IMG/VR virus record: IMGVR_UViG_3300010384_000006
Reading direction: 5' to 3' (one strand)
Length of the DNA: 58,629 nt
Origin: a virus
Part shown: positions 7,280 to 15,013 of the stretch, piece by piece
Position numbering within the stretch: the first letter of the stretch is position 1
Layout of the letters: every line of letters starts with the position of its first letter
Made by a program: the position numbers and the translations under genes
The notes under the pieces: generated by a model
The model's database searches: none
What the model was told of the DNA's origin: nothing
What the model saw: only the letters and a program-made list of their open reading frames with translations

Positions 7280-7593
7280 CCGACATAGACGCCGCCCGCG
7301 AGCGCCGCGATCATGCTCTCATCGTCCTCTTTGCCATGCGCTACGCGATGGGTCGCCAGTCGGCCGGGGTCGGCATCGTGCGCGACTACATTGCCCGTCA
7401 TCTCGACGGGCTGACCGAGAACGAGCGGGAGGCGATGGCAACGGAGATCGACACCGCCGAACGGTTGATGCTTGACCGGATCGATGAGGGCGGCGTGATG
7501 GTGACGATGCCAACAGCGATCGGGAGCCCGATCGTCGATGCTCCAGGGTGGCTCGACTTGCGTGACCTGCTGAGGGGAGGGAGTGATGCCTGA
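7276..7593 (+). CDS. Hypothetical protein
   Basis: 105 aa ORF, ATGA-coupled to the upstream gene. Confidence 0.55.
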   Translation: MTDIDAARERRDHALIVLFAMRYAMGRQSAGVGIVRDYIARHLDGLTENEREAMATEIDTAERLMLDRIDEGGVMVTMPTAIGSPIVDAPGWLDLRDLLRGGSDA

Positions 7594-8035
7594 CCTCTGT
7601 GTGTTGGTGACCGGGACGAGACACGCCACGCCTGCCGACTGGCGCGATGCCGTCTACGGCGTTCTGTCGCTCCACCTCGCGCGCATCGGCGACGGGCACC
7701 TGCGTGTCATCCACGGCGCTGCTCGCGGGATCGATACGCTCGCCAACGAGTGGGTGCAGGTGCGGCAAGGCCGATGGCGCGTCTCCGCTGAGCGCTACCC
7801 GGCGGACTGGGACGCCCATGGGCGGGCCGCCGGGCCAATCCGCAACGCTGAGATGCGGGACTGCTTGGTGCGCATGCGCGACACCGGGTGGGACTGCTAC
7901 GTGCTCGCCTTCACAGACGACATAACAGCAAGCAAGGGAACGTCCGGGATGTGTCGGCTCGCCAGCGCGGCGGGATTGCCGGTCACCGTGTATGGGCGGG
8001 ATGGCAAGGGCAGGGCGTTTGGAGGTGGGCGGTGA
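7586..8035 (+). CDS. DUF2493 / SLOG-family protein
   Basis: VLVTGTR...HGAARGID..A..W...PADW..HGRAAGPIRN..M pattern. GGGGAGG RBS 5 nt upstream. Confidence 0.65.
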   Translation: MPDLCVLVTGTRHATPADWRDAVYGVLSLHLARIGDGHLRVIHGAARGIDTLANEWVQVRQGRWRVSAERYPADWDAHGRAAGPIRNAEMRDCLVRMRDTGWDCYVLAFTDDITASKGTSGMCRLASAAGLPVTVYGRDGKGRAFGGGR

Positions 8036-9081
8036 AGGTCGACATCAACCAGCTACGGGATCTCGGATGGATCACGACACAGCGCCACCCCACATTGCCG
8101 CTCACGGTGTGTAAATACAGCCGTCACTTCCAGGCAGCGGGCAACTGGGACGACGTGATGCTGACCATGCGAGGCGCGGTTGTGGATGATCACGGCGTCA
8201 TGGTCAATCATCCGATGCACAAGTTCTTCAATCTCGGGGAGGCGGAGACGCCAACGGGACGCTTCACCGTGCAGGAGAAACTGGACGGGACGTGTATCGT
8301 CGTCTTCCAGTGGGAAGGGCACGTCATCGTCCATACGCTCGGGGCGTTCGGATCACCGCAAGCGCAGGCAGCTAGGGAGTGGATCGAGCGGACGTACGGA
8401 TGGGACTGGATGCTTGAGGAAGACACCTACGTCTTTGAGTGGATGGACCCGGACAATTTCACCACGCTGCGATGGCGTGGTGAGCCGACTCTCAAACTGT
8501 TGTTCGTCTGTGACGGCGTTGCGGAAATCGCCGTTGAGCCTAACGGTTCGTGGCCGGGTGAAATTGTCCGCACGCTCGATCTTCAAGGCGATCCTGAAGC
8601 CCTCGCCGGAATGGTGCGCGACGATGAGGAAGGCTACGTCCTCGTCTACGACGATACCTGCAACTGGCAGCGGCGACGACTCAAGGTGAAGGGTGCGCGC
8701 TATCTCGAACTGCATCGTATGGTCTGGAATCTCTCGGAGACGACGGTCTGGGAGATGGTGTTCCAGAAGTCCGAGATGGAGCGCGCCCTGTTTCGCTCGA
8801 CGCTCGACGAGGAAGCCCGAATGTGGTTCGACGAGACGGCAGCAAGAATGGCGGCGTCCTTTGCTGATCTGCGCGGGGAAGCCGACGCCGTGTACGAGAG
8901 CATCCGGGAAGGCGACAAGCGCCTCATGGCGGCGAGGATCAAGTTGCACGATCCCCAGCTCCAGCCGTACCTGTTCATGAAGATGAACGGAAAGCCTGGC
9001 GGGGAGGGCTATCTCGCGAAGTTGATCAAGCCAAAAGGCCATACCGCCTATGCCGCGCTCCGGGATAGTGAAGCAGCCTAA
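8032..9081 (+). CDS. RNA ligase, T4 Rnl1-like nucleotidyltransferase
   Basis: GTG start after GGAGGTGGG, overlapping the upstream stop. MRGAVVD...HKFFNLGE, then motif I EKLDGT (KxDG), YVFEW, EGYVLVY and LKVKG motifs. Confidence 0.7.
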   Translation: MKVDINQLRDLGWITTQRHPTLPLTVCKYSRHFQAAGNWDDVMLTMRGAVVDDHGVMVNHPMHKFFNLGEAETPTGRFTVQEKLDGTCIVVFQWEGHVIVHTLGAFGSPQAQAAREWIERTYGWDWMLEEDTYVFEWMDPDNFTTLRWRGEPTLKLLFVCDGVAEIAVEPNGSWPGEIVRTLDLQGDPEALAGMVRDDEEGYVLVYDDTCNWQRRRLKVKGARYLELHRMVWNLSETTVWEMVFQKSEMERALFRSTLDEEARMWFDETAARMAASFADLRGEADAVYESIREGDKRLMAARIKLHDPQLQPYLFMKMNGKPGGEGYLAKLIKPKGHTAYAALRDSEAA

Positions 9082-9338
9082 CCCCTCAGCCCCCTCAGCG
9101 TCTCCCAGCCCGCCTCGTCCATCCAGACAAAGATCGGCACCCCGTGCTTGAGATCCCCGTTGATCTCGACGATCAACCGCGCGGGATTGCGCTCGTCCGG
9201 TGTCATCCGCACGTCGGCCACTGGCTTCCACGTCTCGTCATAATCCTTTCGGACCATGAGGCCGTCATCGACCTGACGAAAGACGAGTGCGTAGGACTGG
9301 CCACCGGCATAGGTGACGGGGATAGACGTGTCTGGCAT
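9078..9338 (-). CDS. Hypothetical protein
   Basis: 86 aa ORF with GAGGAG RBS. Its 3' end overlaps the 3' end of the ligase gene (convergent). Confidence 0.55.
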   Translation of the reverse strand: MPDTSIPVTYAGGQSYALVFRQVDDGLMVRKDYDETWKPVADVRMTPDERNPARLIVEINGDLKHGVPIFVWMDEAGWETLRGLRG

Positions 9339-13161: not shown

Positions 13162-13910
13162 GCCCGGAGTGGCGCGCGGCCTTCCTCGCGCATGCCCAGT
13201 CTCCGGGATACCGGCGGGCCGTTGCCGAGGCGCGCCGCGCCCTCGATGCGGTCGCTCACCGGCACGTGGTCGTGCCCTTTTCCGGTGGCAAGGACTCGAC
13301 GGTGCTCCTGCACCTTGCGGCGGCGCACTGTCCGGAGTTACTGGTGACCCATTTCGATTTCGGGCGGCCGGGGCAGAAGCGCTACAACGCCTTCCCGGCC
13401 GGGCTGGAGCGGACGATCCTCGACAACGGCAGGGCAATCTCGGGGCACCCCGTCCACGTCATCACCAAGCACAAGTACTGGAGCGATCCGGATGGCGCGG
13501 AAGCCAACCGGCCCGCCGGAACGATGATCCATTACATCCCGGATAGCCTCTCATGGATCGTGGGCAGCATCGGGATTGCCCGGCAGTATGGGTGCGGGAT
13601 CAACCTTGTGGCGTTGCGCAAGGCGGAGAGCCGCCGCCGCTCCCGCCGGATAGAGGCAGGACAGACGATCCGGCCAGATGTGATCGACGAACGATGGCCA
13701 CTGGCGGACTGGTCCGACCGCGACGTCTGGGCTTACCTCGTGGAGCACGATCTGCCCTATCCCGCAATCTATGACGAGCGGGCGGCGGTCCTGGGCGACT
13801 ATCTGGGCGTGCGGCTGACCTCACTCTTCCGCGATCCCACCGAAGCCAAGGCCGACAGCACCGCGATGGATGGCATTCTCAACTGGCGAGACCGCAATGC
13901 CCCGCGATAG
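13158..13910 (+). CDS. CysH-like PAPS-reductase/PP-loop ATP-pyrophosphatase family protein (type IV-B accessory)
   Basis: Internal ATG (residue 28) of ORF 13077-13910, ATGA-coupled to csf3. PP-loop VVPFSGGKDSTVLLHL and PLADWSDRDVWAYLVEHDLPYPAIYD. Confidence 0.75.
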   Translation: MSPEWRAAFLAHAQSPGYRRAVAEARRALDAVAHRHVVVPFSGGKDSTVLLHLAAAHCPELLVTHFDFGRPGQKRYNAFPAGLERTILDNGRAISGHPVHVITKHKYWSDPDGAEANRPAGTMIHYIPDSLSWIVGSIGIARQYGCGINLVALRKAESRRRSRRIEAGQTIRPDVIDERWPLADWSDRDVWAYLVEHDLPYPAIYDERAAVLGDYLGVRLTSLFRDPTEAKADSTAMDGILNWRDRNAPR

Positions 13911-14634
13911 CCGCCTCTACGCCATCGGCGACACGCACGGGCACCTGCGCGAGACGCGAGCGCTCGTCAAGCAGTTGGTCGCCGAGGGCATGGAGCCAGA
14001 ACGGGATACCGTCGTCTTCCTGGGGGATTACGTGGATCGCGGTCCCGATGTGTGCGGGCTGGTCGCCTACCTGATGCTGTGCCCGGCGCACTGGGTCTTC
14101 CTGCGCGGCAATCACGATCAGATGTTGCTGGATGCGCTGGAGCGCCCGTGGGAGGATCGTCCCTTCCTTCGCTGGTTCACCGCCGGGGGCCGGGAGACCT
14201 GGTACAGCTACATCTCCTCCCGCAACCGGCATCAGCTGGTGACAACATACCCGTGGCATCACACCGATGCCGACCGGCTGGCAATTGCGAGCGACATCCC
14301 GGACGATCATCTCGCATGGCTGGAGGCGCGGCCCCTGTGGCACGAGACGGACCGGCATCTCTTTGTCCATGCCGGATTGCGGCCGGGCGTGGCGCCAGCG
14401 GATGCGCGGCCCCGCGATCTGCTCTGGATGCGTCGGGAGTTCATTGCCTCCGATCACGACTGGGGCAAGATCGTGGTCTTCGGGCACACCACGCAGCGGG
14501 CGCCGCTGGTATTGCCCAACAAGATCGGCATCGACACGCTGCAGTATCCCAATGGCTCTCTGACGGCGGTCCGTCTCGACACGGCAACCCCGGTGTTCTT
14601 TGCGCAGCCGCTGCTGGGAGGGTGCGATGGTTGA
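13897..14634 (+). CDS. Calcineurin-like metallophosphoesterase (lambda PPase / ApaH-like)
   Basis: Motifs GDTHGH, GDYVDRG, GNHD, VHAG and GHT. Start overlaps the cysH-like stop by 14 nt. Confidence 0.8.
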   Translation: MPRDSRLYAIGDTHGHLRETRALVKQLVAEGMEPERDTVVFLGDYVDRGPDVCGLVAYLMLCPAHWVFLRGNHDQMLLDALERPWEDRPFLRWFTAGGRETWYSYISSRNRHQLVTTYPWHHTDADRLAIASDIPDDHLAWLEARPLWHETDRHLFVHAGLRPGVAPADARPRDLLWMRREFIASDHDWGKIVVFGHTTQRAPLVLPNKIGIDTLQYPNGSLTAVRLDTATPVFFAQPLLGGCDG

Positions 14635-15013
14635 GGTCTGGCTGGTGGGCGTAGGGCGCAATCTCAATCGGGCGGTCCGAACATGTGCCGCCTTCGGCGT
14701 GTCGCGGCTGGTCATGCTCAACTGTGACGAGGCGTGGCTGACAGGCAATGTCTACAGTGCTGCGGGCAAGGTGGAGATTGTCCGCGCGGAGACGTGGCCG
14801 GATGCCGCCGGGACGCTGGCGTTGGAGACGTACGCCACGATGCCGATTCGTGAGGTCCCGTGGGAGCACGTGCAACGGATCGTGATCGGTGGCGAGACGG
14901 CCGGGTTGCCGCGCGGCATGGCGGCGGAGTGGTGGGCAACGATCCCGCAGGTCAGCGGGCCCGGCCTCACGGTGGAGGCAGCGCTGGCGATCGCCTTGTA
15001 TGAGGCGTCCTGA
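14627..15013 (+). CDS. SPOUT (SpoU/TrmH/TrmL-like) RNA 2'-O-methyltransferase
   Basis: 129 aa. Motifs NLNRAVRTCAAFG, IGGETAGLP and IPQ...GLTVEAALAIALYE. Overlaps the upstream stop by 8 nt. Confidence 0.75.
   Translation: MVEVWLVGVGRNLNRAVRTCAAFGVSRLVMLNCDEAWLTGNVYSAAGKVEIVRAETWPDAAGTLALETYATMPIREVPWEHVQRIVIGGETAGLPRGMAAEWWATIPQVSGPGLTVEAALAIALYEAS

Follow-up and report, generated by a model that had tools for sequence, protein, structure and literature searches.

The stretch of DNA considered here, IMG/VR virus record IMGVR_UViG_3300010384_000006 (58,629 nucleotides; "the window" below means this whole stretch), is the complete or near-complete 58.6-kb genome of a temperate, siphovirus-like phage with a GC content of about 64% and with genes for terminase, portal, capsid, integrase and repressor. 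Its positions 6534–15363, located between the lysis gene and the leftward integrase arm, which is the usual place for phage accessory genes, contain a plus-strand operon with an Rnl1-family RNA ligase, a minus-strand tRNA cluster, and a plus-strand type IV-B CRISPR-Cas (Csf) operon that also carries a metallophosphoesterase (MPE) and a SPOUT methyltransferase. An earlier reading of this DNA (the original prediction) had assembled the SLOG protein, the ligase, the tRNAs, the MPE, the SPOUT enzyme and the type IV-B core, all of which are indeed present at 7586–15013, into one distributed kit for tRNA repair and protection. Gene proximity in an accessory arm can, however, falsely suggest a single pathway, and the region is more probably a patchwork of three modules, independent of one another, that lie in the accessory arm of this temperate, siphovirus-like actinophage. 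This three-module reading, with the MPE and the SPOUT enzyme as accessories of the type IV-B system, is as a whole the explanation we prefer, with fair confidence; all functional statements below are drawn from homology, structural models and gene context. The features of the type IV-B module are the following:

10461–10489 and 10532–10560, upstream of csf1: direct repeat of 29 nt in two copies 71 nt apart, 20 nt of it exact
10605–11351, plus strand: csf1, large subunit, CxxC...CxxC (PADLOC Csf1_0_IV, 1.3e-29 over 1–220)
11239–11616, plus strand: cas11, small subunit (PADLOC Cas11_0_IV, 1.1e-12)
11613–12473, plus strand: csf2, Cas7 backbone (PADLOC Csf2_0_IV, 8e-58; TIGR03115, 2e-14)
12454–13161, plus strand: csf3, Cas5 (PADLOC Csf3_0_IV, 7.8e-42; TIGR03116)
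13158–13910, plus strand: cysH-like PP-loop enzyme, SGGKDS (PAPS_reduct, 8.9e-14)
13897–14634, plus strand: binuclear MPE, NinI/lambda-phosphatase/ApaH-like (Metallophos, 8.7e-17; phrog_246, 4e-45)
14627–15013, plus strand: minimal SpoU/TrmH-class SPOUT methyltransferase, 128 aa (SpoU_methylase PF00588, 33.4 bits, cutoff 29.7)
15013–15363, plus strand: HTH_17/MerR-like DNA-binding protein, with which the operon ends (Pfam, 1e-05)

Judged by its gene content (Csf1, Cas11, Csf2, Csf3, a CysH-like protein and no array), the locus is unambiguously of type IV-B. TIGR03115 and TIGR03116 are the best NCBIfam matches of Csf2 and Csf3, yet both fall under the equivalog cutoffs, and a Csf1 homologue in locus L007, 45% identical to that of the window, carries the Pfam Csf1 family. 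Neither Cas6, DinG nor adaptation proteins were found among the scanned open reading frames (ORFs) of the window, and no CRISPR array was found in its 58.6 kb, the only closely spaced repeat being the two-copy one upstream of csf1, which looks regulatory. The same gene set and order, csf1-cas11-csf2-csf3-cysH-like, has been described for the type IV-B system of Mycobacterium sp. JS623 (PMC7937560; reviewed in PMC8175902 and PMC7038947), which is likewise without Cas6, DinG and a CRISPR array, lies on a mobile element of an actinobacterium, and has a CysH PP-loop protein without the catalytic cysteine; the CysH-like protein of the window also is without the C-terminal catalytic Cys motif. Phages and prophages with type IV-B loci are already known (PMC7038947, PMC10848311). 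The window locus differs from the JS623 type in being phage-borne and in that its operon goes on to include a phosphatase and a SpoU-class methyltransferase.

The order of the module is csf1-cas11-csf2-csf3-cysH-like, then MPE, SPOUT and the helix-turn-helix (HTH) gene, and every junction overlaps. The csf3/cysH (ATGA), cysH/MPE and MPE/SPOUT (8 nt) overlaps were read directly in the sequence, so that the MPE gene overlaps both the stop of cysH and the start of the SPOUT gene, and the remaining junctions, including cas11/csf2, csf2/csf3 and SPOUT/HTH, overlap by ORF coordinates. These overlaps place the MPE and the SPOUT enzyme within the Csf/CysH operon itself, and the tRNA cluster on the other strand separates them from the ligase. 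For the region as a whole, three transcription units on alternating strands are indicated by strand, by overlaps and by a −10-like motif, and in this respect the notion of one distributed kit finds no support; nor does it on comparison, as no ligase, SLOG or MPE homologue occurs within 10 kb in about 100 loci anchored on Csf2, and tRNAs are rare near type IV-B loci (5/95 and 3/50).

The SPOUT enzyme had been assigned by the original prediction to the 2'-O class, and this assignment holds: by profile and by predicted structure, the methyltransferase is of the 2'-O-ribose class. Its AlphaFold2 model (pLDDT 91.9) has SpoU/TrmH-class 2'-O-methyltransferases as all of its top 50 PDB neighbours, and profile and model match only RNA 2'-O-methyltransferases, namely TrmH, TrmL, RlmB, Nsr/Tsr and TrmJ, while the motifs RNLNRAxRT, GGE and IP..LT[VT]EAALA are conserved in 44–45 homologues. 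To our knowledge, the SPOUT methyltransferase class acts only on RNA, with one reported exception. In comparison with TrmL and TrmH (PMC3763551, PMC9508554), the SpoU core is shared (TM about 0.8 to TrmH, RlmB and TrmL), and motifs 1 and 2 and the position of the catalytic Arg are conserved. TrmL has itself been called minimalist (PMC3763551), but the window enzyme is shorter still (128 aa), is without the RNA-binding extension, and has LT[VT]EAALA rather than the canonical LNVS as motif 3. Since it thus appears to be a bare catalytic core, the recognition of its substrate is likely supplied by partners. Unlike TrmL and TrmH, moreover, it belongs to a clade that lies inside Csf operons and in which fusion to a phosphatase is frequent.

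This embedding was followed from two sides. The search anchored on Csf2, which gave the roughly 100 loci mentioned above from viral contigs and genomes, yielded a locus (L033) in which a SPOUT protein 43% identical to that of the window lies between csf3 and cysH, with a small HAD-type phosphatase before it. The SPOUT family itself comprises 104 database homologues, a tight group of ~130-aa proteins, 10 of which carry, at one end or the other, a fused cysteine phosphatase domain with HCxxGxxR. Loci anchored on this protein were collected from IMG/VR and JGI metagenomes by means of SPOUT peptide patterns alone, together with the contigs of the three closest homologues, two of which yielded DNA and are counted among the resulting 46 non-duplicate loci; the third, the P0099 contig, reads csf3-PTP-SPOUT-cysH by gene calls only. 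A Csf or CysH gene is near the SPOUT gene in 45/46 loci, CysH is present in 41/46, and where at least 2.5 kb of flank is available Csf2 or Csf3 is found in every case (20/20); the best families of the Cas proteins in these loci are Csf2, Csf3 and Csf1. Neither GenBank phages nor PLSDB plasmids contain the SPOUT clade. These counts show the clade to be a dedicated accessory of type IV-B loci, and they make the suggestion that the Csf/CysH module may take part the best-supported element of the original prediction.

The phosphatase follows the same pattern, being directly upstream of, or fused to, the SPOUT gene in 22/46 loci. Ten of these 22 phosphatases are of the DSP/PTP type (HCxxGxxR; Pfam Y_phosphatase2/3, PTP-SAK) and 12 are BT0820-type HAD proteins (NF046079, 4e-21; PDB 2obb, 2e-10), and the MPE of the window occupies the same slot, inserted between cysH and the SPOUT gene, which in most loci are adjacent to each other. 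In locus L104 the order is csf2-cysH-PTP-SPOUT-csf3, with the PTP-SPOUT pair inside the Csf operon. As three unrelated phosphatase folds are exchanged at one and the same position, the phosphatase step would belong to the same pathway as the methyltransferase; we regard this replacement as strong evidence for a common pathway, and the MPE and SPOUT enzyme of the window look like a functional pair. A recurrent SpoU methyltransferase with a phosphatase in type IV-B was not found in the literature searched, which did not cover all subscription literature.

The same data bear on the proposal that the MPE and the SPOUT enzyme are unrelated "morons" beside the type IV-B genes, that is, a NinI/lambda-type protein Ser/Thr phosphatase and a stand-alone methylase of host tRNA or rRNA. 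The MPE matches the NinI-like phrog_246 at 4e-45 and lambda phosphatase (1g5b) as the best PDB entry, its homologues are widespread in unrelated lytic phages, and the accessory arm is mosaic, the nearest relative (L005) having a cupin in the place of MPE and SPOUT. Set against this are the constancy of Csf or CysH around the SPOUT clade and its absence from GenBank phages and plasmids, the phosphatases of three folds (PTP, HAD and MPE) in the same position or fused to the SPOUT protein, and the placement of the MPE between two otherwise neighbouring genes, overlapping both; we consider the moron explanation the least probable of those weighed here.

As regards the MPE itself, the original prediction was right in naming a binuclear metallophosphoesterase and too specific in calling it Pnkp-type. 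All five metal motifs are present (GDTHGH, GDYVDRG, GNHD, VHAG and FGHT), and phrog_246 and ApaH match the protein better than Pnkp does: the family scores are 60.2 bits for ApaH, 54.2 for PrpA/B-type protein phosphatase and 39.6 for Pnkp (TIGR04075), all far below their cutoffs, that of TIGR04075 being 750 bits and its match covering the metal-motif region only. The PDB matches are 1g5b (1.3e-8), the phosphatase domain of Clostridium thermocellum Pnkp (4j6o, 1.8e-7) and 2qjc (4.6e-7). The likeness to the bacterial Pnkp/Hen1 system lies in the pair, in that a calcineurin-type MPE is combined with an RNA 2'-O-methyltransferase and a logic of dephosphorylating and then methylating the ribose 2'-OH fits both. 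The differences are that Hen1 is a Rossmann-fold enzyme while the methyltransferase here is a SPOUT protein, that bacterial Pnkp has kinase and ligase domains which are missing from the window MPE, and that in the window Csf proteins and a PP-loop enzyme take the place of the partners. Of the heal-seal-methylate logic proposed originally, a heal-then-methylate part probably applies to the MPE-SPOUT pair; neither a kinase nor a cyclic-phosphate enzyme lies beside the ligase.

Taken together, the gene context suggests that the MPE and the SPOUT enzyme are accessories of Csf/CysH which probably dephosphorylate and 2'-O-methylate an RNA handled by the Csf complex. In the mechanism that we propose, the Csf ribonucleoprotein would select or hold an RNA, the phosphatase would remove a ribose-linked or terminal phosphate from it, the SPOUT enzyme would methylate its 2'-OH, and the PP-loop CysH-like enzyme would act on that substrate too, in a step dependent on ATP. 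What results would be a modified rather than a cleaved RNA. The phosphate removed might be a 2',3'-cyclic or 3'-phosphate, as with Pnkp/Hen1, or a 5'-terminal or cap-like one, as with ApaH-like and DSP enzymes. This scheme draws on the bare-core nature of the SPOUT protein, on the finding that the Csf complex of type IV-B assembles on RNA (PMC7937560), and on the proposal in the field that the complex recruits CasCysH in order to modify nucleic acid (PMC8175902). Generalized to all type IV-B Csf complexes, it would make them RNA-modification machines and not nucleases, in which the Cas7 filament presents an RNA or a base-paired target to SPOUT, phosphatase and CysH; we offer this generalization tentatively, and just as tentatively the analogy of such a machine with box C/D guide ribonucleoproteins or with the Hen1 capping of Argonaute-bound small RNAs.

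If this were true, phages would be making chosen RNAs resistant to host ribonucleases or stabilizing captured guide RNAs. The cysH-like gene has been pointed to as the only clue to type IV-B function (PMC7038947, PMC8175902), and the SPOUT and phosphatase genes would then be the first direct clue that the substrate of IV-B/CysH is an RNA ribose or phosphate. For type IV-B, the one CRISPR-Cas subtype without an assigned function and substrate, the presence in many phage operons of a methyltransferase class that acts almost only on RNA, repeatedly joined to phosphatases of three unrelated folds, makes for a concrete hypothesis, namely that RNA would be dephosphorylated and 2'-O-methylated under the direction of the Csf complex, and supplies catalytic residues to mutate and natural variants to express.

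It has to be noted that several observations weigh against this interpretation. As many as 24/46 SPOUT loci are without a recognizable phosphatase, and a SPOUT gene is found in only 2 of the ~100 loci (~2%) anchored on a window-like Csf2, which makes it an accessory of a minority of particular IV-B lineages. The MPE appears as the phosphatase partner of SPOUT only in the window phage and the near-identical contig L004, so that its recruitment to the IV-B block would be a single event, and its best families are protein and dinucleotide phosphatases, with nothing RNA-specific among them. A sigma-70 promoter scan of the region gave nothing above threshold, which bears on the transcription units proposed above. 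Finally, tblastn and phmmer were run with single queries, by which a ligase or kinase of divergent sequence near IV-B loci might be overlooked, and a cooperation in trans of the ligase with MPE and SPOUT inside this one phage, although improbable, is compatible with the genomics.

Such a cooperation is what the kit explanation amounts to: ligase, MPE, SPOUT enzyme and tRNAs would act in trans as a heal-seal-methylate kit that repairs, protects and replaces tRNAs cut by host anticodon nucleases. Its starting point is the ligase, which is encoded in the first module:

6534–6920, plus strand: DUF4326 protein, first gene of the operon (Pfam PF14216, 2.3e-19)
6908–7593, plus strand: two small ORFs, 6908–7279 and 7276–7593, with overlapping junctions and without significant Pfam family
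7583–8035, plus strand: SLOG protein (YAcAr/DUF2493; PF10686, 30.9 bits, cutoff 28.2; phrog_289, 4e-22)
8032–9081, plus strand: Rnl1-family ATP-dependent RNA ligase (PF09511; phrog_562, 1e-35)

These genes, all on the plus strand and joined by overlapping junctions, form an operon. The original identification of an Rnl1-type ligase is borne out by sequence and model. The translation contains KFFNLGE, EKLDGT, EGYVLVY and LKVKG, and the residues invariant in 30 homologues (R47, F66, N67, K83, D85, G86, E136, E200, G201, K218 and K220) conform to the Rnl1 pattern of motifs I (KxDG), III, IV (EG) and V (KxK) with the Rnl1-specific upstream residues. The AlphaFold2 model (pLDDT 90.5) has T4 Rnl1 (2c5u) as its best PDB match, with an E-value of 3e-13 over 365 columns, and resembles it over the whole length, including the helical C-terminal domain; the ligase domains of fungal Trl1 come next. 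With TIGR02308 at 26.2 bits against a cutoff of 242, the match stays below equivalog level for T4 RnlA, so that the protein is a distant member of the family rather than an equivalog of RnlA.

Around relatives of this ligase, a repair kit of ligase, kinase, MPE and tRNAs does exist. In GenBank actinophages a homologous ligase is found beside, or less than 1 kb from, a Pnkp gene, among tRNA genes. In 80 IMG/VR viral loci with related ligases the neighbours include a ~220-aa Metallophos protein (51/80), a ~133-aa AAA_33 P-loop kinase (50/80), a cREC_REC cyclic-phosphate-processing domain (32/80) and tRNA genes within 6 kb (32/80). This split form of the kit, with stand-alone kinase and MPE next to the Rnl1-like ligase and cREC_REC, is very common in uncultivated phages (loci L156–L235) and is often tRNA-rich, with 129 tRNAs in 32 loci.

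In the window phage the kit is not assembled, and the tRNA-repair reading finds only partial support. The absence of a visible polynucleotide kinase, noted originally, was confirmed: tblastn with two phage Pnkp proteins (Seahorse and BoomerJR) gave E > 0.3, and neither Pfam scans of 30 window ORFs nor scans of the other non-structural ORFs against Pfam and PHROG revealed a kinase domain, so that no hidden kinase or Pnkp came to light in the window by these searches. Beside the ligase there is no cREC gene, 3'-end-healing enzyme or cyclic-phosphate enzyme. The sole MPE of the phage lies 4.8 kb away in the other operon and belongs to another subfamily; it aligns with the ligase-linked MPE with a BLASTP E of 0.014, by the metal motifs only, and has no tblastn match in the 82 ligase loci, and its identity with the ligase-linked MPE can be ruled out on these grounds. 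Compared with T4 Pnkp/Rnl1 and the split IMG/VR kits, the window is alike in having a ligase of Rnl1 fold and motifs near tRNA genes, and differs in having no kinase, 3'-end-healing enzyme or cREC gene beside the ligase and in the subfamily and operon of its MPE. Since the phage has no polynucleotide kinase, the ligase alone could, by analogy with Rnl1 chemistry, seal only RNA breaks with 3'-OH and 5'-phosphate ends, and it could not complete the repair of classical anticodon-nuclease cuts; the Rnl1-type ligase of the window phage is an orphan, lacking the kinase and end-healing enzymes that its relatives have beside them.

What speaks for the cooperation in trans is, apart from these genuine kits, that the second-best PDB match of the window MPE is the Pnkp phosphatase domain named above, that 2'-O-methylation blocks transesterifying RNases, as in Pnkp/Hen1, and that phage tRNAs have been hypothesized in the literature (PMC10264068) to serve against nucleases as a decoy or a supply, to which the unusual G33 of the phage tRNA-Cys can be added. 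It is opposed by the lack of a kinase, leaving 5'-OH ends that cannot be healed, by the subfamily of the MPE, and by the translational packing of MPE and SPOUT into the Csf operon, with the tRNA cluster on the opposite strand between them and the ligase. No ligase match was found in any of the SPOUT-anchored loci (n=51), and when 146 ORFs of nine long SPOUT loci were surveyed with Pfam, the families listed (PAPS_reduct, SpoU, packaging or head genes) included no ligase or kinase. The two components also occur apart, as locus L154 has the ligase without SLOG, MPE and SPOUT, and L005 has the Csf genes without MPE and SPOUT. We therefore regard cooperation in trans as unlikely and retain the three-module reading, according to which ligase, SLOG protein and tRNAs are acquisitions separate from the Csf operon.

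The coupling of the ligase to the SLOG protein, another part of the original prediction, could not be sustained. The 4-nt overlap at their junction is specific to the window genome; in L154, which has the closest relative of the ligase (87% identical), SLOG is absent and a homologue of ORF 7276–7593 (66% identity) lies directly upstream of the ligase. A SLOG gene occurs within 6 kb in 4/82 ligase loci and is adjacent in none, so the two are not a conserved pair. Their homologues occur in largely different phage groups: those of SLOG were found in 534 GenBank phages, mostly cluster A mycobacteriophages, which are absent among the ligase hits, and there they adjoin replication and nucleotide-metabolism genes.

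DUF4326 and SLOG lie two genes apart in a single operon. DUF4326 has been predicted to process ADP-ribose phosphates and is known from fusions with SLOG, Macro and NADAR domains (PMC9503650, Iyer et al. 2022), and both DUF4326 and SLOG have been tied to the processing of ADP-ribose derivatives and not to ligation (PMC9503650). The window resembles the viral genes of that study in having both in one operon of a phage accessory region, and differs in that they are unfused, that no Macro, NADAR or Nudix partner was detected, and that a ligase is adjacent, a neighbourhood particular to the window genome. Since both families have been proposed to act on immune signals derived from ADP-ribose (PMC9503650), the combination points to a role against NAD/ADP-ribose signalling that is independent of the ligase.

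The prediction of an RNA-modifying type IV-B operon leaves room for a further alternative, in which the chemistry is the same and the role is reversed, IV-B/CysH/MPE/SPOUT being expressed from the prophage and serving defence against, or competition with, other mobile elements or the regulation of lysogeny, instead of lytic counter-defence. Non-defence or inter-element roles have been proposed for type IV-B in the literature (PMC7038947, 10.1101/270033). The operon lies in the integrase-proximal arm, beside the HTH_17 gene and the leftward lysogeny genes. An HTH homologue (77% identical) likewise follows the IV-B block in L005, and HTH genes also stand after cysH in L237 and in the P0099 contig. 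The 385-nt divergent intergenic region between tRNA-Cys and csf1 contains the direct repeats listed above, and no other long direct repeat with closely spaced copies occurs in the 58.6-kb genome. The second copy abuts an extended −10-like motif, TGcTAGAGT, that is conserved in L005, so that the operon would have its own −10-like element flanked by operator-like repeats.

In many phages, on the other hand, SPOUT-type IV-B adjoins terminase, portal and head genes (beside or between them in L033/L140 at 1294–9301, in the P0099 contig and in L104–L110), which suggests late lytic expression, unlike the integrase-proximal position in the window. A role in the prophage seems to us a possibility, though a doubtful one.

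The repeats themselves are probably operator or promoter elements of csf1. They were also considered as a mini-CRISPR array, which seems less likely than a regulatory role: no excess folding or hairpin signal and no IMG/VR match was found. The "spacer" between the copies is as conserved in L005 as its surroundings, and two-copy repeats of this kind occur about once per 45–85 kb in other loci.

Genuine CRISPR arrays were seen in two other SPOUT-type IV-B loci. In L150 the array (about 999–1260; 37-nt repeats, period 72–73) lies ~90 nt after cysH, and in L112 it lies at 9361–9700, 4.4 kb downstream, beside a TnpB-like gene; some SPOUT-type IV-B systems may thus use CRISPR RNAs.

L005 has the closest relatives of the Csf genes, with Csf1–Csf3 86–90% identical. 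When its positions 2813–6025 are compared with 11613–15363 of the window, CysH shares no more than 38% identity, and after it comes a cupin/AraC_binding gene where the window has MPE and SPOUT, which looks like a cassette exchange at the CysH-MPE-SPOUT point inside the operon. A look for genes that generally accompany IV-B loci brought up, apart from Cas11, nothing beyond common phage functions (RusA, DNA methylase, terminase and sigma-like proteins), and none was retained as a candidate. Individual SPOUT loci have additional genes: in L110 a radical SAM protein follows cysH (9138–9983), and in L104 (5087–5899, 9634–10758) a Vsr/DUF559-type endonuclease lies between cas11 and csf2 and an ABC-type ATPase after csf3.

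The second module, 9078–10219, consists of tRNA genes and an ORF transcribed leftward, opposite to both flanking operons:

9078–9338, minus strand: 86-aa ORF downstream of the tRNAs, high GC3, no family match
9688–9776, minus strand: tRNA-Ser-UGA (ARAGORN, Rfam)
9778–9865, minus strand: tRNA-Ser-GCU (ARAGORN, Rfam)
9963–10036, minus strand: tRNA-Asn-GUU (ARAGORN, Rfam)
10148–10219, minus strand: tRNA-Cys-GCA (ARAGORN, Rfam)

The original prediction was correct as to the tRNA genes and not as to their number, given as three with a tRNA-like gene: all four are genuine by ARAGORN and by Rfam RF00005 (49.5–69.8 bits, cutoff 29). The 86-aa ORF has a 63%-identical homologue in L154, on the opposite strand just past the ligase, as in the window. 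With regard to tRNA-dependent lysogeny (PMC10865867), a comparison of the phage tRNAs with the rest of the window genome gave no match of at least 14 nt. The anticodon loop of tRNA-Cys(GCA), CGGCAAA, has G at position 33, while the other three tRNAs have U33. U33 is almost universal in tRNAs, and the G33 may have a bearing on decoding or on how well the tRNA resists nucleases of the anticodon loop.

The remaining landmarks of the genome, which also encodes a primase-helicase, are the following:

1455–2906: lysis gene
19527–20693, minus strand: tyrosine integrase
20995–21876, minus strand: Cro/CI-type repressor
37030–38292: terminase large subunit
38289–39839: portal
43242–44609: major capsid protein

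A near-identity search of GenBank phages gave no match for the region or the structural arm, and single-protein scans of IMG/VR no close relative of the phage. Window proteins are also present on a contig of JGI metagenome 3300010226, the one source in which identical sequence was found. Contig L004, from the same metagenome and compared with 10605–14634 and 15360–16938 of the window, is near-identical and has frame-breaking differences in csf1, csf3 and the MPE gene, as well as one 540-aa ORF against two in the window (404 and 214 aa), which may be assembly error or a real variant. Among GenBank phages, Skermania phage SPI1 (KR011061; locus L001, 6840–10473) is the only one with a detectable Csf2 homologue, and its orf40–44, all five labelled hypothetical, look like an unannotated type IV-B locus.

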